A DNA stretch of 64,000 nucleotides from a virus, in UHGV virus genome UHGV-0214148; one strand, given 5' to 3'. The position numbers were made by a program, and so were the translations under genes. The notes below the pieces were generated by a model. That model did not search any database. It saw only the letters and a program-made list of their open reading frames with translations, and was not told the DNA's origin. Below, one piece after another: positions 11,468 through 59,112 of the stretch (the stretch's first letter is position 1; every line of letters starts with the position of its first letter).

Positions 11468-11490
11468 CTCCCTTTAATAATATCTATCCA
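11468..11490 (-). promoter_or_regulatory. promoter-like conserved motif, copy 5 (weakest)
   Basis: Minus-sense TGGATAGATATTATTAAAGGGAG, ~90 nt upstream of ATG 11377, immediately after the MCP terminator. Confidence 0.35.
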
Positions 11491-11559: not shown

Positions 11560-13854
11560 TTACTTACCAGCAGCAGCTTTGCCTTCGCCAGCAACGTTAC
11601 CTGCTACACCACCTTCGGTTTGTTTCTGACCGTTCTGTTCAACAGAAACATTGTAAGCCAGTTTTTCTTCAACCAGTTTGGTGATGCCTTTAACCCAGAT
11701 CAGACCAGTGATCGGGCAGTGGCAGATGTGCGCGTTACGCGGCTGTACGGCCAGCTCTTTAGAGGTAGAACCGTTACGCTGAATGTTGATGTTGGTAACC
11801 ATGATCGGAGACCAGAAGTGGTTACCCCAGTTCAGCACGTTGTAGGAACCATCGTCCGCAGTCGGAACTTTCAGGAACCATTGCAGACGACGAGTCCAGG
11901 AACCGTCAGCTGCGTTGTAGATACGCCAGCGGTCATCGTTGGTGGTGATCACTTCGTATTCGTAGCGATCGCCCAGCAGACGTTGGTCGCCCTGTACCAG
12001 CAGCAGCATAGATGCAGTCGGTTCGTCAGTTGCAATAACAACTTTCGGCAGAATGTCCGGATCGGCAGTGTACAGACGCAGCGCAGGAATGAAGCGAGAT
12101 TCCTGGATAGCCTGAGTTACCTGATTACCGATACGCTGTACCAGGCCCTGACGAGCGTTGATCAGTGCATCTTTGGTATCCAGGGACTGTACAACTTCAT
12201 CAACGTTGTAGTCAGACTCTTTGAACCACGGAGCAACCCAGTGACGGCCCAGACCACGAATGGCCGGTTTGTCCCACGGAGTGATCATGCTTGCAGCAGC
12301 GTTACGTACCGCTTCGGTGTAAGACAGCGTCTGAGTGATAGCCAGCTGTTCGTTACGGATGTTAACTGCGGAAATCAGGTCGTCCAGACGTTCGGTATCG
12401 TCGTATTCAACGCCAACCGGAGACTTGGTCAGGATCGGAGAACCGTATTGCAGTTTGTAGTTTTCTTGTTCCCAGATTGGGTCAAGCAGCAGACCCTGGG
12501 TACGACGGTTTTCGTTGGTACGAGTACCATCGAAGCGCCAGCCCATCAGTTCAAGTTTCAGACCGTCCAGGATAACTTTGCCGGTACCAGATTTGGTATC
12601 AACTTTGTTACCGGTAGCGTCGTACAGACCTTCGATTTCCAGTTTGTGACCAGCGATGTCAACTTTACCACCGAACTGACCGGTAGTGAACAGAGACATG
12701 TTGATGGTGATCACATAACGCAGGGTGTAGGAGTTCTGTTCCAGTGATTTCAGTGCCGGAATAGCTTCGCCTTTCCAGTCGGTGGTTTTCGCATTCAGAG
12801 AGAACGCAGTACGACGGAATTGCAGTACCAGCTCACGGCCATCACCTTCAGCAGGACGCTGGAAGGTTGCGAACTGCATGTCACGAACGTGCAGTTTGAT
12901 GAATTTACCTGCTTTCGCTTCTTCGGTCGGTTTACGTACGGAAATCAGCAGGCTGCCCAGAGCACAACCCGGTGCGATTTCATCAGTTTCGTCGTAACCT
13001 TCCTGAACGATACCCGGATGCGCAGACAGCTGGAACAGGTTCAGAGTGTCTTTAGCAAAGCTCAGGTAGTTAGTCGGGTACGGAGGTACACGACCCAGGC
13101 GAACAGATTCGTTCGGTACCAGTTCTTCGCTTACGAAGTATTCAGCGTTTTCACCGGTTTCCATTACGTAAGGAACGATGTTGATCGCTTCGTCCTGAAG
13201 AACGGTGTGGTCAGTCAGCGCTTCGTGCAGGTTACGACGATGATCTTCAACAACGTCTTTGGTCAGTAACGCGTGCATGACACCACGAGAAACGGTGGTC
13301 ACTTTGGTACGTACGGTAATACCAACATCGTTGGTGTCAACGGTGATGGTCGGGAACAGAGTCTCAGCAAAACGAGACTGAGTTTCCAGAGCACGTACGT
13401 TCAGCGTCCAGGTCAGACCCAGGTTTTTGTCGTAATCTTTGTTGGTGTAGTATTCCTGAGCAACAACCATACGCTCTTTGCCCCAGTCGCCGTTACCAGC
13501 TTGGGAACCAGGAATCGCAACGTCCAGGTTAAAACGGCTATGGAATTCTGGCTTAGCGTATTCTTGCGCTACTTTTTCTTGCAGGTCCATACCGTGACCA
13601 GCAGCACCCAGAATCATTGCAGAAGCAACTTCCGCAGCGTGGGACATTTTCTTACCGCCAGCAAACGCGTTTGCGTAGTGCTGTGCAGCATCGTCACGCA
13701 GGGTACCAAAAACTTTCGTGTTGCTACGTACAGACTCACCAGCAACGATGGTGTTCCACATTTCGCCAGCACTGTTGTTACTAATGACGCTTTGTACCAG
13801 CGAGTTACCAGCTTGTACGAGTTTCTCCAGATTAGAGATTCGGGTATCTTTCAT
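11560..13854 (-). CDS. putative major capsid protein (764 aa)
   Basis: ORF track; strongly biased highly-expressed-type codon usage (produces a 375-aa antisense ORF artefact); strong terminator downstream; size matches phiKZ-like jumbo-phage capsid proteins. Function is inference. Confidence 0.55.
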   Translation of the reverse strand: MKDTRISNLEKLVQAGNSLVQSVISNNSAGEMWNTIVAGESVRSNTKVFGTLRDDAAQHYANAFAGGKKMSHAAEVASAMILGAAGHGMDLQEKVAQEYAKPEFHSRFNLDVAIPGSQAGNGDWGKERMVVAQEYYTNKDYDKNLGLTWTLNVRALETQSRFAETLFPTITVDTNDVGITVRTKVTTVSRGVMHALLTKDVVEDHRRNLHEALTDHTVLQDEAINIVPYVMETGENAEYFVSEELVPNESVRLGRVPPYPTNYLSFAKDTLNLFQLSAHPGIVQEGYDETDEIAPGCALGSLLISVRKPTEEAKAGKFIKLHVRDMQFATFQRPAEGDGRELVLQFRRTAFSLNAKTTDWKGEAIPALKSLEQNSYTLRYVITINMSLFTTGQFGGKVDIAGHKLEIEGLYDATGNKVDTKSGTGKVILDGLKLELMGWRFDGTRTNENRRTQGLLLDPIWEQENYKLQYGSPILTKSPVGVEYDDTERLDDLISAVNIRNEQLAITQTLSYTEAVRNAAASMITPWDKPAIRGLGRHWVAPWFKESDYNVDEVVQSLDTKDALINARQGLVQRIGNQVTQAIQESRFIPALRLYTADPDILPKVVIATDEPTASMLLLVQGDQRLLGDRYEYEVITTNDDRWRIYNAADGSWTRRLQWFLKVPTADDGSYNVLNWGNHFWSPIMVTNINIQRNGSTSKELAVQPRNAHICHCPITGLIWVKGITKLVEEKLAYNVSVEQNGQKQTEGGVAGNVAGEGKAAAGK

Positions 13855-14404: not shown

Positions 14405-15967
14405 ATGAATAACAAAATGATGTTGATAACCGCCTTAGCCACATTATACGCTGAAAGTCTTCTGACCGATCCTGAAAAGGACCACGACATCATAAGAAAA
14501 GTGCTGTTAGAGGCTAAGCTTCCTGATTACGCAGAAGAAGGTGACGAACGTGCCGCCCTCGTCGAAATCAAGGATATCATCACATCCATCATAGACGGCG
14601 GTATGCCTTACGACCACACAAACGTCATGAAACGTTTGAAACTGGCCACTACGCAAATACGTCCTCTATACGATACGATTACCAAATTCCTGGAAGATGA
14701 TATTCCAGAAGAACCAGAAGCACGCATCGAGCATCTTAATCGCCAAGTAGCACAATACTACTTTCAGTTACGTCAAGCTATTCAAGGCGTACAACTGAAA
14801 CAAAAATTGGGTCGTACGTTAGGCGCACTGAACGGCACTGAAACGCGTGTTGATTTACAAACGGCGCTCAACGACCTTAAGGATACCTTATCCACGTTCA
14901 GTGAACGCTCTCATAATAAGATTCCTTCTCTGGTAGGGGAATTGATTACTGACAATAAAGCACCCTTCGTACATGTATTCGACTCTATCAGTAAGAAAGC
15001 GGCAGGGAACGGGTTGCGTACGGGGTGGAAAGCAATTAACCAAATGCTTGGCTGTAACAAAGGGATCACTGAAGAACTCTGGCTGATGCCTGCTCTCCCC
15101 TTTAACTGTAAGTCATTATTCAGTTTATTGCTCTCTATTAGCATTCCTGTATTCAACACCCCAGAAAAGGTGATGGCAAATGTTAAAGGTGACTTACAAC
15201 CGGTTATTCTGGATTTAAGTTTAGAAAACGAATTAGATGTTAACTTGGCTTACGCGTATCAAGCACTTTACGGACACTTTGAAGGTACAGCTCCGGTAAT
15301 GGTTGCACCTGAAACGGCAACTGACGAAGAAAAAGCGCTACACAATGCACAAATGTCAGATTACCTCTGTAGTAAAATGCGGGCAAACGGTTGGGAGTAT
15401 ATTTTCCAAAAACACACAAACTCCGATTTTAAAATTCACTATTTGAATGATTTGATTTTAGATTTAAAACGTCGAGGTTATCATGTAGCTGGAATACGCG
15501 GAGACTATTTCGGTACTATCAGCAAAGCAGGACACGGTAACGGTATTGCGGGTAGTGACATTAAAGAAATTTATCGTATCGCGCGAAACATCCAAGTGGT
15601 ACGTAATCGTGGTTTCCTCTTAGCACCACACCAAATCTCACCAGAAGGCAAAAAATTAAAAGCACTCGACCCAGCAAGTTTCTGTAAGAGCTTACCTGGT
15701 CGTGGTCTTTACGACAACTGCTCTAGCTTAGACAACGAAGCTGACGGTGAGATGTATTTTAACAAACGTGTCGTCAGCGGACACAGCTATTTAGAAGTAC
15801 AACGCGGTAAACACCGTACCATTATTGACACCAAAGAAGCTTATCATTATACTGTAATACCTTTCCGCGATGTTGGCATTTTGCCATGGGATTGTGATAA
15901 AGAAGAAACTGTAACAGCCTCGTCGATTAACGTATTTACCGGCGGCATGGGTGACGAACTCTTTTGA
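14405..15967 (+). CDS. hypothetical protein (520 aa)
   Basis: ORF track; AAGGA Shine-Dalgarno 6 nt upstream; followed by hairpin 15972-15989. Confidence 0.85.
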   Translation: MNNKMMLITALATLYAESLLTDPEKDHDIIRKVLLEAKLPDYAEEGDERAALVEIKDIITSIIDGGMPYDHTNVMKRLKLATTQIRPLYDTITKFLEDDIPEEPEARIEHLNRQVAQYYFQLRQAIQGVQLKQKLGRTLGALNGTETRVDLQTALNDLKDTLSTFSERSHNKIPSLVGELITDNKAPFVHVFDSISKKAAGNGLRTGWKAINQMLGCNKGITEELWLMPALPFNCKSLFSLLLSISIPVFNTPEKVMANVKGDLQPVILDLSLENELDVNLAYAYQALYGHFEGTAPVMVAPETATDEEKALHNAQMSDYLCSKMRANGWEYIFQKHTNSDFKIHYLNDLILDLKRRGYHVAGIRGDYFGTISKAGHGNGIAGSDIKEIYRIARNIQVVRNRGFLLAPHQISPEGKKLKALDPASFCKSLPGRGLYDNCSSLDNEADGEMYFNKRVVSGHSYLEVQRGKHRTIIDTKEAYHYTVIPFRDVGILPWDCDKEETVTASSINVFTGGMGDELF

Positions 15968-15971
15968 GTCT

Positions 15972-15989
15972 GGGGAGCTTCGGCTCCCC
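15972..15989. terminator. stem-loop with UUCG-type tetraloop after plus-strand gene
   Basis: ggggagc TTCG gctcccc; no T-run on plus strand, A9 run at 16018-16026. Confidence 0.45.
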
Positions 15990-16109
15990 CTATAACCCCT
16001 TATGCGTCTCGGAAAGCAAAAAAAAACAGAAGACTATTAATTATGAATGGAAAACAACTACCGAACTAAGCAGGGGGTGGTAGCAACACCCCCTTTATTA
16101 GTTAGTAAC

Positions 16110-16271
16110 TTATCTCCTTACAGGTGGTTGGTGAACATTGTGGTTGTTAACCGTTTTCGGTGCCGCAACGAGGCCGAGACGAACATATTCGTCCATGCGT
16201 TGGTTAAACTGAATTTGTTTCTCACGATTTCGCATCGCGGTATTGAACATCTGTATTTGATATTCGTTCAT
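16110..16271 (-). CDS. small basic protein, paralog family member A (53 aa)
   Basis: Hand translation MNEYQIQMFNTAMRNREKQIQFNQRMDEYVRLGLVAAPKTVNNHNVHQPPVRR; lies downstream of repeat copy 1; not in ORF track (under 60 aa). Confidence 0.45.
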   Translation of the reverse strand: MNEYQIQMFNTAMRNREKQIQFNQRMDEYVRLGLVAAPKTVNNHNVHQPPVRR

Positions 16272-16330
16272 TTTTCATTACCTTTCGTAATGTTGTAAAA
16301 ACGTCAACAACTTTATGTGTTGACACCGTA

Positions 16331-16420
16331 CAGTAGAGACTGTTCCACCAGTCTCTACTGCTTTAACTTCTCTTTGGAAAAGTTAAAGCTAAGAAAAGGG
16401 GTGGTGAAGCACCCTTTTTT
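16331..16420. repeat. structured repeat unit, copy 1
   Basis: Variable hairpin (cagtagagactg/cagtctctactg) + conserved core CTGCTTTAACTTCTCTTTGGAAAAGTTAAAGC (16358-16389) + hairpin with T-run (16394-16420). Confidence 0.7.
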
Positions 16421-16492
16421 ATACCTACGACCACCATCTCGGCAGGTTACTGTACGAGGAGGAGGGGCGCTGACACGCCCCTCCTTTATTTG

Positions 16493-16666
16493 TTAGTAGT
16501 GTTCACTCCTCTTTTCAGTGAATATCTGCGTGAAACGGTTGGTAGACGGTTTTAACCGTTTATCCATGCCGAGCTGACTATACTTGTAGATACGTTGCTG
16601 TAAATTGGTCTTTGCTGCACTCTGTTCTGCAAGCATTTTGTCAGTAAAGTAGTAACCATTGTTCAT
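16493..16666 (-). CDS. small basic protein, paralog family member B1 (57 aa)
   Basis: Hand translation MNNGYYFTDKMLAEQSAAKTNLQQRIYKYSQLGMDKRLKPSTNRFTQIFTEKRSEHY; clear protein-level paralog of B2 with many synonymous codon differences. Confidence 0.6.
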   Translation of the reverse strand: MNNGYYFTDKMLAEQSAAKTNLQQRIYKYSQLGMDKRLKPSTNRFTQIFTEKRSEHY

Positions 16667-16727
16667 GGTAAGCCCTCTTTGTAGGGTGATTAAAGAAATC
16701 CACTACGGAAACGTGGTGGTGCTGTAA

Positions 16728-16820
16728 AGGGTACGCTGGTGCTACAGCGTACCCTGCTTTAACTTCTCTTTCGAAAAGTTAAAGCTATGTAAAGGGGTGT
16801 GACAGCACCCCTTTATTTTA
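16728..16820. repeat. structured repeat unit, copy 2
   Basis: Variable hairpin (agggtacgctg/cagcgtaccct) + core CTGCTTTAACTTCTCTTTCGAAAAGTTAAAGC (16754-16785) + hairpin with T-rich tail (16791-16820). Confidence 0.7.
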
Positions 16821-16821
16821 T

Positions 16822-16992
16822 TTAGTAGTTACTTCTCCTTTCGGTGAAGATCTGTACTCGAGGATTGTTAGAGGCTTTAAGCCTTTTATTTAATCCGAGT
16901 TGTTGAACCTCTCTTAGTCGTTCATTAAACCTCGCTTGTTCTGCATAGCTGTTTGAGATAGAAGTAAAGATACGTGTATTGTTGTTAGTCAT
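16822..16992 (-). CDS. small basic protein, paralog family member B2 (56 aa)
   Basis: Hand translation MTNNNTRIFTSISNSYAEQARFNERLREVQQLGLNKRLKASNNPRVQIFTERRSNY; shares QLG(M/L)xKRLK...QIFTE(K/R)RS..Y with B1. Confidence 0.6.
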   Translation of the reverse strand: MTNNNTRIFTSISNSYAEQARFNERLREVQQLGLNKRLKASNNPRVQIFTERRSNY

Positions 16993-17048
16993 GTTAAAAC
17001 CTCACACGAGTTGGGGATTAAGCTATTACGTACCGGTAATAGCGACAA

Positions 17049-17135
17049 GTAGGGACTGTATAGGCAGTCCCTACTGCTTTAACTTCTCTTTCGAAAAGAT
17101 AAAGCGCCTATGGGGAGTGTTGGCGCATTCCCCCT
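17049..17135. repeat. structured repeat unit, copy 3
   Basis: Variable hairpin (gtagggactg/cagtccctac) + core CTGCTTTAACTTCTCTTTCGAAAAGATAAAGC (17074-17105) + G/C-rich structure. Confidence 0.65.
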
Positions 17136-17153
17136 TTAGGTTGTTACCCCCTC

Positions 17154-17282
17154 TCAACTACCGACTGGGTGTTTCTTGGGTTGTGTTAACGTTGGTTGCG
17201 CTATTTCACTAACCCTTCGTTGAAATTCGAGCTGTTTTACGGACAACTCGTTTAACCGTCGAAACAACAGTTCATGTTTCAT
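17154..17282 (-). CDS. small basic ORF C (42 aa)
   Basis: ATG 17280-17282 preceded by AGGAG 8 nt upstream; hand translation MKHELLFRRLNELSVKQLEFQRRVSEIAQPTLTQPKKHPVGS. Confidence 0.35.
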   Translation of the reverse strand: MKHELLFRRLNELSVKQLEFQRRVSEIAQPTLTQPKKHPVGS

Positions 17283-17309
17283 GAACTTATCTCCTATGTT
17301 GAATTTGCG

Positions 17310-17365
17310 AAAATAAATAAAGTGTACCCCTAATCCCGAAAAGGATTAGGGGTTGCTTTTATTTA
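17310..17365. terminator. bidirectional intrinsic terminator
   Basis: Stem cccctaatcc (17327-17336) / ggattagggg (17343-17352), 6-nt loop, A/T-rich runs on both sides. Confidence 0.6.
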
Positions 17366-18174
17366 GTCGCTACGTATTGAACATGACCACATTCCTTACA
17401 TTGCACGTTGGCTTTCGGGATTGTCAGGCCGGTTAAAGGAACACGTATTTGGTACTGTGCTCCACATTCTTCACAAACAAAATCGTATTCTGGATAGACA
17501 CGACCTTTTAATTTCTCTTCTTTCCTTAGTGTGCCTGCTAAGAACAGCATCGCACCTAACGCTTCATTAATCTGCTGTTCCCATTCTCCGTCTAACGGGT
17601 AAGCGAACGCACGAGTCAACGTTTCCACCATCTCTGGAGCATTACTTACATAAACGTGTTTCAGTTCAAACTCAACACGCTGTAAGCCAAACAATACGCG
17701 CGCTGTTACTGTAACGTTATCTAATGTTTGTGCAAACACAACAGGATTATCGTCACCGTACATTGCGAATAACGCAGCACGTTCGTATTCGATATCACTC
17801 CACTCGATTAGTTCTACAGATTTAATCTCTTCCGCAATCGCTGCATTACCGAACGTTTCATGTTCCAATAATCCGACGATAACTTCATTCAACGATTTCA
17901 ATTGCTGTAAACGAATCACAGGATCGGTGTTCACGATAAGCAAACGATGCATTCTGGATTTCAACCAGTTAATCGTTCCTTCTACACCACCCCCAAACGA
18001 GCAGATGCTTATCACTTCAGGTTCGCGAAGGATAAGAGTGGATTTTCCTGCTGCCGTACTCAAGTAGAGTTTAAAAGACTTATCGCTGGACTCTACAACG
18101 ATGGCAATGTCTTCAGTTGGAACGAAGTTTTCATTGCTCAGTCCACGCGGAAAATAATCTTTAATGGTAATCAT
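17359..18174 (-). CDS. hypothetical protein (271 aa) with C-terminal C4 zinc-ribbon-like motif
   Basis: ORF track; GGAG Shine-Dalgarno upstream of ATG 18174; C-terminal CEECG...(17 aa)...CKECG. Confidence 0.8.
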   Translation of the reverse strand: MITIKDYFPRGLSNENFVPTEDIAIVVESSDKSFKLYLSTAAGKSTLILREPEVISICSFGGGVEGTINWLKSRMHRLLIVNTDPVIRLQQLKSLNEVIVGLLEHETFGNAAIAEEIKSVELIEWSDIEYERAALFAMYGDDNPVVFAQTLDNVTVTARVLFGLQRVEFELKHVYVSNAPEMVETLTRAFAYPLDGEWEQQINEALGAMLFLAGTLRKEEKLKGRVYPEYDFVCEECGAQYQIRVPLTGLTIPKANVQCKECGHVQYVATK

Positions 18175-18190
18175 CTTTTATGCTCCAATT

Positions 18191-18222
18191 AATAAAAAAA
18201 TTAAGGGCACCCGAAGGTGCCT
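18191..18222 (-). terminator. intrinsic terminator after small lipoprotein-like gene
   Basis: Stem aagggcacc / ggtgcctt (18203-18222) with 4-nt loop; on minus strand followed by AATTTTTTTATT. Confidence 0.75.
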
Positions 18223-18228
18223 TATACA

Positions 18229-18372
18229 TTAACCACGACCAGTGCACTGTGCAACGGAATTACCGTTGTCGATGCAAGTGTCGTAGCCTTTGTCGATGTC
18301 CAGATACAGGCAACCCAGAACAACAGCGATAACAACAGCGAAGATAGCTTTTTTGTGTTTTACAGAAATCAT
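18229..18372 (-). CDS. small membrane/lipoprotein-like protein (47 aa)
   Basis: ATG 18370-18372 with AGGAG 8 nt upstream; hand translation MISVKHKKAIFAVVIAVVLGCLYLDIDKGYDTCIDNGNSVAQCTGRG; lipobox-like VVLGC; optimal codons; terminator directly downstream; promoter-like motif upstream. Not in ORF track. Confidence 0.55.
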   Translation of the reverse strand: MISVKHKKAIFAVVIAVVLGCLYLDIDKGYDTCIDNGNSVAQCTGRG

Positions 18373-18419: not shown

Positions 18420-18443
18420 CTCACCTAGGTAATATATATCTGA
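18420..18443 (-). promoter_or_regulatory. promoter-like conserved motif, copy 1
   Basis: Minus-sense TCAGATATATATTACCTAGGTGAG, ~48 nt upstream of ATG 18372. Confidence 0.5.
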
Positions 18444-26675: not shown

Positions 26676-26699
26676 CTCACTAAGGTAATATCTATCTGA
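26676..26699 (-). promoter_or_regulatory. promoter-like conserved motif, copy 2
   Basis: Minus-sense TCAGATAGATATTACCTTAGTGAG, between paralog-1 terminator and ATG 26624. Confidence 0.5.
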
Positions 26700-39941: not shown

Positions 39942-41723
39942 ATGAATAACTATTACGCACCGGAAGACGTTATTGCCAAGGAGTGCAAGTTTGTTTCTTA
40001 CGCAACCGATCAGCAGAAAGAAAACGACTTCGTGCTCATAAAGGAGGTCGTCCATACTAAAGATGGCAGATATATCCCACGAATTGTCATGCGTGAAAAT
40101 CTGAAACGTCCCATCTACATTACATTACCACAACATCGTAACCACAAGGAAAAGAAGGAATACGAGGAACGTAGTAAGTGTCAGGAGTATTTAACAACGG
40201 ATGTAATGATGTCCTCAACCATACAGATGGGTTTGGGGATTCGTTTTCCCGACAAAAAGAAACCACTCCGCCAAGTTTGCACTTCACCGTTTGTTTACTG
40301 GGCCGATTTGCCCATTACGAGCTGGATTAAAGAAAAGTACATGCGTAAATGGCCTAATGCTGTTTCACCCAACCGCATCTGTGTATACGACGTGGAAACT
40401 CGAGAAGAAGACAAATCTCGAGACCCCTGGATTATGAGTTTTGTTTTAGACGACGAAATTCATTTCTTTGCTACGAAAGACTATGTCACACGCTGCGGAC
40501 GTGAAAACTTTGAAGCGCGACTCGTCAATCGTGCTCAGGAATTGCTTTCTAAAATCGCTTTTCGTGGGAAAGACGAGAACGACAATCCTATCGTTAAATA
40601 CAAAAACGTTATCGACGGTTACAAAATCTTCGTTTACGAATGTCTCAATTCGGGCTGTTGTATTCAACGGATGTTTGAGGAAATTCACCCTCGTCTCCCT
40701 GACTTACTCGTCGCATGGAACCACGAGTTCGATATTTCACGTATGTTAGAAGCTTTAGAAGCAGCGGGCATTCCACCGGAAGACGTCTTCTGTCATCCAG
40801 ACGTGCCGAAACAGTACCGTCGTGTCTACTTTAAGAAAGACGAAGCATCGAAGAAAACGGAATCAAAGTCACTAACAAAAGCACCTTCACAGCAGTGGCA
40901 CATTCTTTATTGTACGGCGTCATTCTACTGTGTAGATGCGATGTGTCTATTCCGTTCATTGCGTGTACACGAAGGGCAACGTCCTTCTTACAAACTTAAC
41001 GCGATACTGGAAACCGAGTTGGGTTTAAACAAGTTAGACTTACCGGATTTACCCTACGAGGAAAAATTGGAATGGCACTTAAAGGCACAGAAAGATTTCC
41101 CGTTAGAATACTGCGTTTATAACATCTTCGATAACCTGATGATTGTTCTGCTTGATAAAAAGACGAACGATCTGTCTTCTGCTATTTCAGTGTTGGCAGG
41201 TTATTCGATGTACGATATCTTCCCTTCACTGCCGAAGCGAATCTGTATTGCGTACACGTACTACCTCTACGAACAAGGTCTGGTTATCGGCTGTGTTGGT
41301 AGCGCGATGCGTAACGATTTTGACAATGAAGTCATTGGGACAGACGGTTGGATTGTTACATTGACCGCGTGTATGAACGCAGAGAATGGCCTACGAAACA
41401 TCATCAAGGAGGTTGATGATTTCTACACGGCTTTCCGTGGACAAACCGCAGATGCTGACTTAACCCAGGCATACCCATCCGCAACAAACATGATGAACCA
41501 GTCTCGTGAGACGACGTTAATCGAGTTATTAAGCATTCACGGTGTTCCTGAAGAAGTACGGCGTCGCGTCGGTATTAACCTTACTGCAGGTCGCGTTAAC
41601 GCAATGGAGATCGCGACAGATTTCTTCCTATTACCCGATAAAAACGACGTCTTAGAAGCTTTTCTACGTCGACAAGGAGAAGCAATTACCGATCCTTTTG
41701 AATACATCAAAGCCGCAAAGTAA
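39942..41723 (+). CDS. putative 3'-5' exonuclease (DnaQ / family-B polymerase exonuclease-domain-like)
   Basis: Track ORF 39828..41723 trimmed to ATG 39942 (MNNYYAPEDV) to avoid overlapping the divergent gene; motifs VYDVETRE (Exo I DxE), WNHEFD (Exo II), YNIFDNL (Exo III YxxxD). No polymerase motifs A/C seen. Confidence 0.55.
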   Translation: MNNYYAPEDVIAKECKFVSYATDQQKENDFVLIKEVVHTKDGRYIPRIVMRENLKRPIYITLPQHRNHKEKKEYEERSKCQEYLTTDVMMSSTIQMGLGIRFPDKKKPLRQVCTSPFVYWADLPITSWIKEKYMRKWPNAVSPNRICVYDVETREEDKSRDPWIMSFVLDDEIHFFATKDYVTRCGRENFEARLVNRAQELLSKIAFRGKDENDNPIVKYKNVIDGYKIFVYECLNSGCCIQRMFEEIHPRLPDLLVAWNHEFDISRMLEALEAAGIPPEDVFCHPDVPKQYRRVYFKKDEASKKTESKSLTKAPSQQWHILYCTASFYCVDAMCLFRSLRVHEGQRPSYKLNAILETELGLNKLDLPDLPYEEKLEWHLKAQKDFPLEYCVYNIFDNLMIVLLDKKTNDLSSAISVLAGYSMYDIFPSLPKRICIAYTYYLYEQGLVIGCVGSAMRNDFDNEVIGTDGWIVTLTACMNAENGLRNIIKEVDDFYTAFRGQTADADLTQAYPSATNMMNQSRETTLIELLSIHGVPEEVRRRVGINLTAGRVNAMEIATDFFLLPDKNDVLEAFLRRQGEAITDPFEYIKAAK

Positions 41724-53913: not shown

Positions 53914-53937
53914 TTCAGTAGGATAATATCTATCTCA
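53914..53937 (-). promoter_or_regulatory. promoter-like conserved motif, copy 3
   Basis: Minus-sense TGAGATAGATATTATCCTACTGAA, ~22 nt upstream of beta gene ATG 53892; sits in the divergent region with plus gene 53956. Confidence 0.5.
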
Positions 53938-57431: not shown

Positions 57432-59060
57432 TTATTGATTAAACCATGCTACTTCTTCGCATTTCTTTCTGTTTTGAATTAACAGAAATTCTGCTAACAT
57501 GTTCTGAAGTCGCGGATGAGGTGAATAGTCCAACATCACTGTCCCACACCGTAACATTCTGGCTGCTTCCGGTGTTGCCCTGAGATTGAAGTTGAACGGC
57601 GCAATATGTTCACGAACCAACAAGCTGAGAGAATCCTTCAATGTTGATTGTTCGTAAGTATTACGATGTTTACGGTATGCTTGTGGATAATATCTATCCG
57701 TTTTTATTTTAATCTCATTATCGATAGGCTCGATGGGATACCCGCCATTTAGTGGTGCCCGGATCATTTCACAACTTAACAACTGTGCAATCTCAGGCAT
57801 TCCGTAATAGATGTAAACGGCTTGGGATATACCCATCGCGTTCTTAAACGCTTCTGAGTCGATTTCCTTGTATGTACGACGATCTGCAAATCGGTGCATC
57901 ACTGCCGCCACCAACCATTCGTAGAGTTCGTAGAACGGATATTGATGATTAATGTTGATGGAATCTATCAACACTTTCACATCAGCGGGAGCAATATCGA
58001 GATTCAAAGCACGTACCGCACGACGATAGTCATTAAAGAATTCTTGGGTACGAACGAATTCCTTCATTGGTGCTTTAGTCCGAGCTTGAACCAGGTCAAT
58101 CGACGAAGTTTTCCCCTTCTCGCCATTGAACATGATTTTCTCAGGATTCGCTTTTAACATCACGTTTTGGCCGGAAATTTTTCCCGCGAAGCCCGTTTCG
58201 ATTTCTTGTCGAATATTGAAATACATCCCCGCCACGATGTTGTTTTCAACCATCGTACCTGGCGGTAGTTCGGCACCGATTAACTTCATTGCAATTAAAC
58301 GGATAACGGCGAACGCTATGATGTATTCCTCTACCATATCCGTACCGTAGCCACAGATAGATGCCAGGACGGTAAGGTTTGCAGTATTGGGTCCTTTACT
58401 CCCTCCGTCCTGAACTTTCGAAATCACCGACACTAAAAACTCACGCAACTTTGTAATGGCTGGCAGTGTAGCAATCTCGGTATCAGACAACAACTCCATG
58501 CAGTAGGTCAGGTTATAAACACTTTTGCGCTTCGACTCAACAGAAGCGCGTGTTGCAGGAAAAGCGTCCAAAATCAAGAATACGGGAATAAACGGTTTTG
58601 TCATCAAAGACAAAATCACCAATTCGTAATAATCTTGTACGATATACGTCATCTCTTTTGGATAATTCGACGACATCTCTTCGTACGTTTCGTGGACGTT
58701 TTGAGGAATCCACACCGAACCGTGTGGATAAAGCTGGCGGAATCTATCTGCGTGATGAAATTTAGCAATTCTCGCGACGAGCGTGGGGACGTGTTCACGA
58801 ATAACTTCTGGGGGTTCATTAGCTAACAACTCTAATTCTTCGTAAACTGAAAACAGTTCGCTTTTCTCTTCAGGCGTTAAAGTTGACCAATAACGCTCGA
58901 TTTCCATGAACATGATTTTATCGTGCGTTACGATCTGTCCGAAACTATCGCGTACGTCTGGCACATTCACGTCTTTACGTCCATTTCGGAAACCATTAAA
59001 CGCGACCTCTTTTTCGCCGTACTTTATCACTAAACGGTCACGATTCTTTTCAATGCGCAT
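57432..59060 (-). CDS. hypothetical protein (~542 aa)
   Basis: Track ORF starts upstream at a non-ATG codon (59144); ATG at 59058-59060 (MRIEKNRDRL) has GGAG Shine-Dalgarno 9 nt upstream and lies ~30 nt downstream of promoter-like motif copy 4. Confidence 0.75.
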   Translation of the reverse strand: MRIEKNRDRLVIKYGEKEVAFNGFRNGRKDVNVPDVRDSFGQIVTHDKIMFMEIERYWSTLTPEEKSELFSVYEELELLANEPPEVIREHVPTLVARIAKFHHADRFRQLYPHGSVWIPQNVHETYEEMSSNYPKEMTYIVQDYYELVILSLMTKPFIPVFLILDAFPATRASVESKRKSVYNLTYCMELLSDTEIATLPAITKLREFLVSVISKVQDGGSKGPNTANLTVLASICGYGTDMVEEYIIAFAVIRLIAMKLIGAELPPGTMVENNIVAGMYFNIRQEIETGFAGKISGQNVMLKANPEKIMFNGEKGKTSSIDLVQARTKAPMKEFVRTQEFFNDYRRAVRALNLDIAPADVKVLIDSININHQYPFYELYEWLVAAVMHRFADRRTYKEIDSEAFKNAMGISQAVYIYYGMPEIAQLLSCEMIRAPLNGGYPIEPIDNEIKIKTDRYYPQAYRKHRNTYEQSTLKDSLSLLVREHIAPFNFNLRATPEAARMLRCGTVMLDYSPHPRLQNMLAEFLLIQNRKKCEEVAWFNQ

Positions 59061-59088: not shown

Positions 59089-59112
59089 TCCACTAAGATA
59101 AAATCTATCTCA
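59089..59112 (-). promoter_or_regulatory. promoter-like conserved motif, copy 4
   Basis: Minus-sense TGAGATAGATTTTATCTTAGTGGA, ~29 nt upstream of ATG 59060. Confidence 0.45.

Follow-up and report, generated by a model that had tools for sequence, protein, structure and literature searches.

The repeated RNase III sites between the small early genes of phages T7 and T3 are duplicated structures, each a single irregular hairpin of at least about 20 bp with an internal loop. The put sites of phage HK022 consist of two stem-loops at most 1 nt apart, which act in the nascent transcript on downstream terminators, and the boxB element of phage lambda has a short stem and a conserved GNRA-like loop, its partner N being a small, basic, arginine-rich peptide. 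The ibs/sib and ldr/rdl loci of enterobacteria are tandem type I toxin-antitoxin repeats, in which a very small open reading frame (ORF) with a structured leader encodes a hydrophobic peptide. Here we describe an array of three structured repeat units, interleaved with genes for small basic peptides, in a 64,000-nucleotide stretch of UHGV virus genome UHGV-0214148 (the window), where the array lies between a DnaB-like helicase gene (plus strand) and a 271-aa gene (minus strand). Each unit holds four hairpins, which on the minus strand, the mRNA sense of the peptide genes, follow one another in all units as H3, core, H1 and H0, before a Shine-Dalgarno (SD) sequence and ATG.

The promoter-early stem-loop (PeSL) elements of T4-like phages unite an early host sigma-70 promoter with a terminator stem-loop and are dispersed at many loci (PMC2839356, PMC4122927). 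Like PeSL, the unit is a short, composite, conserved sequence with a terminator stem-loop. It too belongs to a hyperplastic region of a large lytic phage, where it stands between small accessory genes, and it too coincides with the borders at which close relatives differ by insertions, deletions and swaps. The unit differs from PeSL in that its stem-loop (H3) comes with no identifiable promoter, in that it occurs at a single locus with a single gene family (three copies in the window and one in the 221,873-bp genome of a relative) and in that its conserved part is itself a hairpin with constraints of the RNA type. phiKZ has premature terminators in 5' untranslated regions, with a stem followed by TTAT, and short leader RNAs (PMC10914365). 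The window likewise has terminator-like hairpins upstream of start codons, several of them followed by TTAT or TTAAT; the phiKZ elements, in contrast, have not been reported as a repeated, invariant hairpin specific to a gene family.

We tentatively favour the reading of the unit as a structured RNA module, intercistronic or in the 5' leader, that is particular to the small-gene family and doubles as a PeSL-like recombination module. The locus would then be a hyperplastic accessory-gene array (four minus-strand paralogues and the remnant of a fifth), whose cassettes would be transcribed within a minus-strand mRNA, either by read-through from an early-type promoter at about position 18440 or by re-initiation just behind H3, and would act there as intercistronic or 5'-leader RNA modules. 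The core, with its fixed U·G pair, and the stacked H1 would form the docking site of a sequence-specific factor (the family's own basic peptides or a nuclease are candidates), and the docked factor would set the processing, stability or translation of each cistron. Since the same 30-nt core flanks every gene, the core would also be the crossover point for duplication, deletion and re-pairing of cassettes, as PeSL are in T4-like phages.

Anatomy and conservation of the repeat unit

The first-pass annotation of this DNA had proposed three repeats with a near-identical core, each with a hairpin of variable sequence and compensatory pairing 5' of the core and a G-rich hairpin with a T-run after it (both on the plus strand), together a unit of about 90 nt with three hairpins. 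The repeats were confirmed by the repeat finder, which returned one family of three direct 102-nt copies (16317–16418, 16713–16814 and 17033–17134), and the core by the 30-nt string GCTTTAACTTCTCTTT(C/G)GAAAAG(T/A)TAAAGC, of which the window has three copies at no more than one mismatch against 0 expected from 100 shuffles. The variable hairpin was found as described, its stem differing among copies and staying paired, and so was the G-rich hairpin. All three hairpins thus stood; the unit proved longer, at about 125 nt (full cassettes at approximately 16300–16424, 16696–16820 and 17019–17140), and its fourth hairpin, the second to be conserved in structure only (H0), had been missed. The 122- to 125-nt units fold far better than shuffled sequences (z scores of −7.2 to −9.7), with none of 200 shuffles equal to them. 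The parts of the units are as follows.

16303–16324, minus: unit 1 H0 (GTCAACA / TGTTGAC), conserved in structure only, with H1 on one side and the ORF A ribosome-binding site on the other
16332–16359, minus: unit 1 H1, 11 bp with a 6-nt loop, abutting the core
16360–16389, minus: unit 1 core, 13-bp AU-rich hairpin GCUUUAACUUUUC-CAAA-GAGAAGUUAAAGC with one U·G pair
16398–16420: unit 1 H3, G-rich and terminator-like, with T6 on the plus and TTTTCTT on the minus strand
16700–16719, minus: unit 2 H0 (CCACTACG-GAAA-CGTGGTGG), its loop inverted to TTTC in relatives L022, L023, L025, L028 and L008
16728–16755, minus: unit 2 H1
16756–16785, minus: unit 2 core, the exact consensus, with a GAAA loop on the minus strand
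16789–16816: unit 2 H3, bidirectional and terminator-like, directly 3' of ORF B2
17022–17043, minus: unit 3 H0 (GCTATTAC / GTAATAGC)
17048–17075, minus: unit 3 H1, its loop TATAGG inverted to CCTATA in L003/L006 and L029
17076–17105, minus: unit 3 core, with an AAC arm against a GAT arm and hence one mismatch
17112–17133: unit 3 H3, directly 3' of ORF C, with one plus-strand G·T pair; the minus strand has no T-run

On the minus strand the consensus core, GCUUUAACUUUUC-GAAA-GAGAAGUUAAAGC, is a 13-bp AU-rich hairpin that includes the one U·G pair. H1 (11 bp, 6-nt loop) begins at the base right after the core, with a spacer of 0 nt, and H0 (7 to 8 bp) stands beside the ribosome-binding site. H3, a G-rich terminator-like hairpin, lies directly 3' of the preceding ORF, and the core always follows 8 to 9 nt behind it. 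Units stand upstream of the peptide genes A, B1 and B2 only, ORF C having none, and are spaced by 396 and 320 bp, which are occupied by conserved protein genes. A clustered regularly interspaced short palindromic repeat (CRISPR) array, which would have palindromic repeats of about 28 to 37 nt and short spacers without genes, or a solitary mimic of its repeat was rejected on the ground of these gene-filled spacings; one H1 loop resembles a type I-F repeat, but the likeness was not conserved between relatives. Replication-origin iterons were rejected as well, with repeats 320 to 396 bp apart, genes between them, and viable relatives down to a single copy.

The set of units comprised 24 copies, from the window (3) and from 13 records of relatives with one or two each, and the counts of paired positions cover 22 of these, those of the window and of 10 relatives. 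In these 22 copies, 98.7% of cells were paired, compared with 90.1% after column shuffles and 42 to 57% with slid partners, the relatives being few and closely related, so that the shuffle controls overstate significance. In H1, 7 of the 11 pairs had changed on both sides and none was broken, the constant part being the three pairs next to the loop (CUG/CAG) and the A-U that closes the stem. The core behaved differently: 12 of its 13 pairs were invariant, the remaining one being A-U, U-A or mismatched, and one U·G was fixed in every copy. The core loop, in contrast, was free (GAAA, CAAA, CGAA or GAAAA, the last a size change of 1 nt), and this change of size fits a hairpin, whereas a dimer operator on double-stranded DNA would not tolerate it. 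Identity among the paralogous units of the window was 93 to 97% in the core, 57 to 69% in the ORFs, 51 to 57% in the leader, 48 to 72% in H1 and 49 to 83% in H3, the alignment of H3 and H0 across unit types being approximate. This pattern means that H1 and H0 are constrained as structure and the core as sequence.

The pattern bears on whether the units are passive punctuation, that is, RNase III or RNase E processing sites and 3' or 5' stabilizers of a polycistronic early mRNA with no dedicated factor. Their intercistronic position, the stack of core and H1 (a helix of about 24 bp) and the existence of co-transcribed variants are in its favour, and like the T7/T3 RNase III sites they are repeated structured elements among small genes that arose by duplication. 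Such a role needs structure, however, and not 30 nt of invariant sequence; H1 and H0 do show a constraint on structure only, and the core differs from them. Compared with the T7/T3 sites, moreover, there are two perfect, short, stacked hairpins here, and the sequence of the core is conserved beyond what a nuclease site needs. We rate passive punctuation as quite improbable. The leader-module reading differs from it in the docked factor: the invariant sequence and the fixed wobble suggest recognition by a protein.

Because a DNA palindrome folds on both strands, the strand of action was sought in the exceptions to pairing; whole-unit folding energy was rejected as a discriminator, since it did not distinguish the strands. 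Among the non-Watson-Crick positions of core, H1 and H0, approximately 8 independent cases were G·U on the minus strand (C·A on the plus strand), against 1 of the reverse kind (two-sided binomial P of about 0.04 under equal odds). This bias lends modest support to a function in the mRNA-sense (minus) strand.

The same counts bear on the alternative already named in the first-pass annotation, plus-strand small RNAs (sRNAs), in which H0, H1, core, H3 and a T-run would make up an RNA of about 120 to 150 nt antisense to the 5' region of each small ORF, much as in tandem type I toxin-antitoxin or antisense-controlled loci. The T-runs of H3, which are better on the plus strand, speak for this proposal, and the wobbles, about 8 to 1 for the minus strand, speak against it. 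A good plus-strand T-run follows every H3, H1 also scored as terminator-like, the plus folds are as stable as the minus folds, and in other minus-strand genes of the window the T-runs lie on the genes' own strand; phiKZ, besides, produces antisense RNAs along with short leader RNAs (PMC10914365). On the plus strand, however, the core has a fixed C·A mismatch, the exceptions in H1 and H0 are mismatches where the minus strand has wobbles, and no promoter-like motif was found upstream. The array shares with ibs/sib and ldr/rdl the tandem repeats, the tiny ORF, the structured leader and the terminator-flanked antisense potential, and differs from them in its hydrophilic, basic peptides, which are not membrane toxins, and in a wobble bias that goes against a functional plus-strand RNA. 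Such sRNAs have, in our estimation, only a slight chance of being the explanation. Given these better plus-strand T-runs, and wobbles of both kinds in its stem, H3 itself may mainly stop antisense transcription or may work in both directions.

A covariance model of the unit, a search that the first-pass annotation had called for, retrieved the three window copies (107 to 128 bits) with their palindromic echoes and, in the complete 221,873-bp relative, a single copy at the same locus; in that genome and in 16 loci of more distant relatives it found nothing further, SPN3US reaching 11 to 17 bits, which was not significant. An extra match (L032 37742–37839, 26.8 bits) was an ordinary terminator hairpin. 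A string search for the core with up to 8 mismatches gave no further copy in the complete relative genome, and neither the core nor its halves were found elsewhere in that genome or in the window as a general promoter or terminator. The sole Rfam match was a spurious one of 18 nt to CrcZ near the 3' end of the helicase gene (17 bits, against a gathering score of 95). That the core keeps to a single gene family suggests a circuit specific to this family, perhaps an autoregulatory one.

The small basic peptide genes and the turnover of their cassettes

The minus-strand ORFs of 42 to 57 codons, all of them basic, that had been noticed between the units were found at 53, 57, 56 and 42 codons.

16110–16271, minus: ORF A, 53 aa, with orthologues in L004, L005, L006, L008, L030 and L031
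16425–16457, minus: trace of paralogue D, the fifth, reduced to its final 10 codons (SYSNLPRWWS) and the stop; D is intact (61 aa) in L006, L022 and L023
16493–16666, minus: ORF B1, 57 aa, with an orthologue ratio of nonsynonymous to synonymous differences (pN/pS) of about 0.2
16822–16992, minus: ORF B2, 56 aa, 100% identical to family member P0001, which is on 90 contigs; orthologue pN of 0 at a pS of about 0.1
17154–17282, minus: ORF C, 42 aa, with no core upstream, a frameshifted copy of a 52-aa orthologue

The paralogy of B1 and B2 was borne out, the shared motifs quoted for it being present. The added claim that the two differ mostly at synonymous positions was wrong: 54 aligned codons held 34 amino-acid changes, 10 synonymous changes and 10 identical codons. 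The case for translation comes from comparisons of orthologues and not from the differences between B1 and B2. Among orthologues, pN/pS was about 0.1 to 0.25 overall (approximately 0.2 for D; for B1 of the window against L023, pS was 0.34 and pN 0.065), and by this measure the four minus-strand ORFs are real genes under purifying selection. Frame-disrupted ORFs beside kept repeats, which had been put forward as a mark of a purely RNA or DNA element, do occur in relatives, where some copies are truncated or deleted while the units persist; the intact copies, however, are constrained as proteins. In the window, a 13-nt deletion in ORF C removes the conserved C-terminal motif, the 52-aa version of relatives ending in ...TQLIVERRSN.

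ORFs A, B1, B2 and C, together with D and E of relatives, align collinearly with each other, with gp194 and gp195 of phage SPN3US and with the equivalents of these two in further genera, sharing an N-terminal FxQR(V/L/I)xE and a basic C-terminal tail, GLGG(D/E)I(I/L)FNK(K/R) or VQIFTERRSN. The profile search proposed for the small proteins returned 63 clusters of 44 to 87 aa, a phage-only family that includes the SPN3US gp194/gp195 slot and occupies the equivalent slot across SPN3US-like phages; the names given by the sources were all 'hypothetical protein', and the contigs, where the longest of a cluster is long, were phage-sized (220 to 250 kb). A joint profile recovered the window group and the SPN3US group at E values of 1e-15 to 1e-9. 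Searches of Pfam and PHROGs with the four window ORFs gave no match. SPN3US gp194/gp195 constitute PHROG 18219, to whose profile the window ORFs had no match at E ≤ 1; the two groups are alike in slot, length, FxQR(V/L)xE helix motif and basic C-terminal tail and differ in the tail sequence, GLGG(D/E)I(I/L)FNK there and of the VQIFTERRSN type here.

The four window peptides are hydrophilic and basic, with a net charge of about +4 to +6 and 4 to 8 arginines over some 55 aa but no arginine cluster. An AlphaFold2 model of B2, built from the family alignment, has one amphipathic helix (residues 2 to 34, predicted local distance difference test score of 84 to 94) and a disordered tail. A type I toxin peptide was rejected, as hydrophilic peptides of charge +4 to +6 with a modelled amphipathic helix and disordered tail do not fit it. 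The small nucleic-acid-binding-type protein of the first-pass annotation remains small and basic; for the binding, the long helix with its disordered tail and the lack of a Pfam match gave no backing, and nucleic-acid binding by these peptides is a guess from charge alone. Its amplified cassette stands as a structured leader with a small basic protein gene; a promoter in the unit gained no support, neither enrichment of sigma-70-type promoters nor an early motif having been found in the units.

Copy number of the family is 1 to 5 per genome, with frequent gain, loss and truncation. One member (P0012) is chimeric, a C-type peptide with a D-type tail (...RRSNLPSWWS), and in the B1 copies of L022, L023 and L027 an in-frame upstream ATG would add 13 residues read from inside hairpin H0. 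Such chimeric and extended members suggest recombination between paralogues within coding sequences and leave the start codons uncertain. In RefSeq record NZ_CP173450.1, annotated by the Prokaryotic Genome Annotation Pipeline, ORF A is present as a hypothetical protein and ORF C is not.

The array differs in every lineage, with 1 to 3 copies of the unit. Read from the helicase side, with U for a unit and a prime for a divergent or truncated copy, the layouts are the following.

Window: A-U-(D remnant)-B1-U-B2-U-C'
L005: A-U-(D remnant)-B1-U-(B2 remnant)
L003/L006: A-U-D-U-(B1 remnant)
L004/L007 and an Escherichia coli 'plasmid': A-U-C
Enterobacter 'plasmid': A-U-E
L008: A-(H1 and H0 only)-B2'-U-C
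L022/L023: B1-U-D-U-C
L024/L027: B1-U-B2-U-C'
L025: B1-(H1 and H0 only)-B2'-U-E

Depending on the genome, the A-type leader and core adjoin the 3' end of D, C, E or B2; for each of the other leaders, two to three partners were seen. At pair 7/24 the core has the alleles AAC/GTT and ATC/GAT, and the mixed forms AAC/GAT (window unit 3) and ATC/GTT (L024 and L027) look like the products of a crossover inside the core between the two alleles. An apparent joint decay of ORF A and core in L026 was rejected, the seven single A/T insertions in about 130 nt resembling sequencing errors. In L008, L025 and L028 a B1 or A copy follows B2' without core or H3 between them, which makes co-transcription possible.

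Loop inversions in H0 and H1 are frequent when relatives are compared (TATAGG/CCTATA, TTACCG/CGGTAA, TTGGCG/CGCCAA and GAAA/TTTC), and these inversions show that the palindromes are also active as DNA. Together with the crossovers in or at the core and the copy numbers of 1 to 3, they are what speaks for a purely DNA-level element, be it a cruciform or hairpin for recombination, for replication initiation near the helicase gene or as a hairpin-type promoter, or else a functionless, gene-converted repeat. This is highly improbable: all 24 copies hold an asymmetric fixed pair (U·G / C·A), which template switching or conversion would erase, the units are always oriented with the downstream ORF and spaced from it, and the gene-filled spacings of 320 to 396 bp are unlike those of iterons. 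The favoured RNA module would combine a role in the transcript with one in recombination.

The likely ancestry of the unit is seen in SPN3US, L012, L013 and L015, where the family member next to the terminator of the preceding gene (gp195 in SPN3US, the sole copy in the three others) has four elements upstream in a set order: the terminator, an AT-rich palindrome in which the T-tract of that terminator pairs with an A-tract (e.g., TTTATTTTC-CGAAAA-GAAAATAAA), a GC-rich hairpin, and TTAATCAC with an SD. In sequence, the window core (CTTTAACTTTTC-GAAA-GAGAAGTTAAAG) looks like a derived, G/C-punctuated version of this SPN3US-type palindrome. Upstream of ORF C, the T-tract half of the palindrome alone remains.

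Genomic setting and transcription signals

Its genes assign the window to a jumbo phage of the phiKZ type (Chimalliviridae), of the SPN3US/phiEaH2-like, nucleus-forming kind. The neighbouring DnaB-like helicase and major head protein genes are phiKZ-type phage genes, the helicase being 83 to 85% identical in amino acids to its homologues in Erwinia phage phiEaH2 and Salmonella phage SPN3US, and ORFs around the array also match PHROG virion-protein families. At the DNA level the nearest GenBank phages are only about 80% identical to the window phage, and megablast and blastn searches of 50,697 GenBank phages with the array gave zero matches. Close relatives were found as IMG/VR and metagenome contigs of 200 to 228 kb, and further ones as a partial 152-kb IMG/VR contig and a 9.9-kb metagenome fragment.

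Two relatives had been deposited as circular 'plasmids', NZ_CP173450.1 (E. coli 98232, 221,873 bp) and NZ_CP134650.1 (Enterobacter ludwigii). These records (L030 to L036 for the former, except L031, which is the latter) are complete genomes of the clade labelled circular and non-mobilizable, from E. coli strain 98232 (urine, Egypt) and E. ludwigii 51A:C (gull cloaca). The label suggests a carrier state or co-purified phage, and the sources suggest Enterobacteriaceae hosts. In NZ_CP173450.1 an imperfect palindrome of about 100 nt (152640–152741, L035 2640–2741), 82% self-complementary with a perfect centre of 26 nt, lies in a 2-kb stretch without an annotated gene (151405–153492), adjoining a tRNA-Ile gene and outside the window.

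The features that surround the units, and the signals that could serve the array, are these.

11560–13854, minus: major head protein gene (PHROG match)
14405–15967, plus: DnaB-like helicase gene (PHROG match)
16072–16094: terminator-like hairpin between the convergent helicase gene (plus) and ORF A (minus), with the T-run TTATTAG on the plus strand
16458–16487: terminator-like hairpin directly 3' of ORF B1
17307–17353, minus: terminator of the 271-aa gene (hairpin 17326–17353) and T-tract TTTATTTATTTTCGC
17359–18174, minus: 271-aa gene with a zinc-ribbon-like C-terminus
18430–18440, minus: early-promoter-like motif tcaGATATATATTAcctaggtgaga, upstream of a 47-aa gene, the 271-aa gene and the array
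11478–11488, 18430–18440, 26686–26696, 53924–53934, 57688–57698 and 59099–59109, all minus: sites of the early-type motif in the window

The early-type motif, tcaGATAGATATTAcCTtAGTGAGA, is strongly conserved over about 25 nt. Its approximately 17 sites in the complete relative genome (L032 to L036) all fall on the main coding strand, most of them in intergenic sequence, and many stand behind a terminator followed by a T-run, CGC and an A-run. Early promoters of jumbo phages have been described as AT-rich motifs of about 10 nt near −10, with middle and late promoters nearly devoid of consensus (PMC7598289). The motif fits this description and is probably, from its sequence and placement, the early (virion polymerase) promoter consensus of the clade of the window phage; no published promoter consensus, promoter definitions or transcript maps for SPN3US-like phages were found in the literature. 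The 47-aa ORF directly behind the motif at 18430–18440 (18229–18372, minus) has a hydrophobic N-terminal segment and a conserved C-terminal CxxNGNSVAxCTGRG, matches PHROG 8574 (E value of 3e-23) and keeps its position from the window clade to SPN3US and phiEaH2.

Between the 18430–18440 motif and the array stand two terminators (18206–18221 and 17326–17353), and in the array region we counted 17 terminator-like hairpins against 2.5 expected. On the plus strand all three H3 matched the intrinsic-terminator pattern, on the minus strand that of unit 1 only, the minus-strand tail being TTTACAT in unit 2 and without a T-run in unit 3. The T-tract TTTATTTATTTTCGC upstream of ORF C is the counterpart of the left arm of the AT-rich palindrome in SPN3US-type relatives. 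The 271-aa gene is followed by a bidirectional terminator (AAATAAATAAAG-hairpin-CTTTTATTTA), one of a near-identical family with at least 4 sites between convergent genes (L033 39806–39856, L034 8399–8452 and 13767–13807, and L036 14295–14343; NZ_CP173450.1 89806, 108399, 113767 and 214295), and composites of terminator and early promoter are repeated too, for example at 40290–40381 and 90862–90954. General PeSL-like repeats thus exist in the relative genome and are distinct from the locus-confined core.

On the other side of the array, at the 3' side of the helicase gene (15972–16094, plus), a GC hairpin follows right after the stop codon, GGGGAGC-TTCG-GCTCCCC in the window and CTGGAGAC-TTCG-GTCTCCAG or TGCCGACC-TTCG-GGTCGGCA elsewhere, the sequence varying among genera and the pairing being kept; it was also seen at the equivalent position in L001, L002, L009 to L014 and L018. 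Some 9 to 10 nt beyond it come a conserved TTATG(C/T)GTCC, then 8 to 10 A, and then a terminator about 70 to 90 nt downstream; the TATG resembles the start motif of phiKZ late promoters (PMC7598289). This helicase 3' element could be a conserved 3' untranslated element or else a small RNA, some 90 nt long, from the plus strand.

Because genes behind an efficient H3 need expression, the main rival to the leader module is a strict terminator-promoter cassette of the PeSL type, in which H3 terminates, the core (possibly with H1) is a promoter or upstream element of a phage RNA polymerase, and each gene is autonomous. It accords with the constant 8 to 9 nt between H3 and core, with the joint absence of H3 and core in L008, L025 and L028, and with the early-type promoters of the window phage, which also follow terminators and whose T-run, CGC and A-run just upstream resemble the SPN3US-type AT-rich palindrome; that middle and late promoters of jumbo phages nearly lack a consensus (PMC7598289) would make such a promoter easy to overlook. 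The units, however, lack the early motif of the phage (the motif scan found GATAGATATTA in none of the three), and sigma-70-type promoters were not enriched, with 4 found against 6.2 expected. A polymerase signal would not be expected at just a single locus of a 222-kb genome, as the core is, and the paired stem, the fixed U·G, the tolerated change in loop size and the excess of wobbles on the minus strand indicate a folded single strand and not a duplex promoter. On balance we consider a terminator-promoter cassette unlikely.

The abundance of terminators raises one further rival, suggested by analogy, in which core and H1 in the nascent transcript would be a cis-acting processive antiterminator that lets the phage polymerase pass the terminators of the array, directly, as put does, or with a peptide, as in lambda N/boxB. 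Adjacent stem-loops sited among terminators are common to put, boxB and the units, in which, by sequence, no spacer parts core and H1 and terminators follow, each cassette having its unit upstream of the next terminator. The first terminators (18206–18221 and 17326–17353), however, precede any core, and ORF C has none. The units also differ from lambda boxB in their 13-bp stem and in a loop whose sequence varies, and the peptides have no arginine-rich motif. The polymerase of the window phage is its own multisubunit enzyme, and we know of no antitermination for that type or for chimallivirus polymerases, which counts further against an antiterminator. We hold this explanation to be very improbable.

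The leader-module reading and its weight

The sequences themselves show the anatomy of the cassettes, how they are conserved, the restriction of the core to this locus, the coding constraint on the ORFs and the shuffling of cassettes with the core at the junction. For the structured leader module, we infer that RNA is the active form and that a factor binds the core, and several points weigh against this. The strand argument consists of only some 9 events; the palindromes fold equally on both strands, with the whole-unit energy of the window units slightly better on the plus strand. G·T is the most tolerated mismatch in single-stranded DNA, so that a hairpin in coding-strand DNA would leave the identical signature. 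In H3, better T-runs and some wobbles fall on the plus strand. The identity of the core could be due in part to recombination or gene conversion rather than function. Efficient minus-strand termination at H3 would require a promoter within the core or behind it. The peptides are not RNA binders of the arginine-rich kind, and the model has just one helix. ORF C, like ORF E in relatives, is presumably expressed without a core. Transcript data for the SPN3US-like group were not found in the literature, and the paper on enhanced crosslinking and immunoprecipitation (eCLIP) of ChmC reported no binding motif.

A narrower proposal is that core and H1 together are a dedicated recognition element, namely a promoter on a folded strand, a put-like antiterminator or a peptide-bound autoregulatory RNA operator; we regard this as decidedly unlikely. 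To our knowledge, almost nothing is known of gene regulation in nucleus-forming jumbo phages beyond the early promoter motif, and such an element, if real, would be a form of gene control not yet described for them. The core is in any case a compact and testable candidate for a cis-regulatory RNA: an invariant hairpin with a fixed U·G, stacked on a hairpin conserved in structure only and tied to a single gene family.

The genes it accompanies are mostly overlooked by routine annotation, only one of two having been annotated in the RefSeq relative, and the fast evolution of this family of basic peptides of about 50 aa, with its varying copy number and its repeated gains, losses and truncations, is the pattern expected of host-takeover or anti-defence factors. 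The comparative evidence places the shuffling of cassettes via conserved regulatory repeats, known from T4-like phages, in the Chimalliviridae also.

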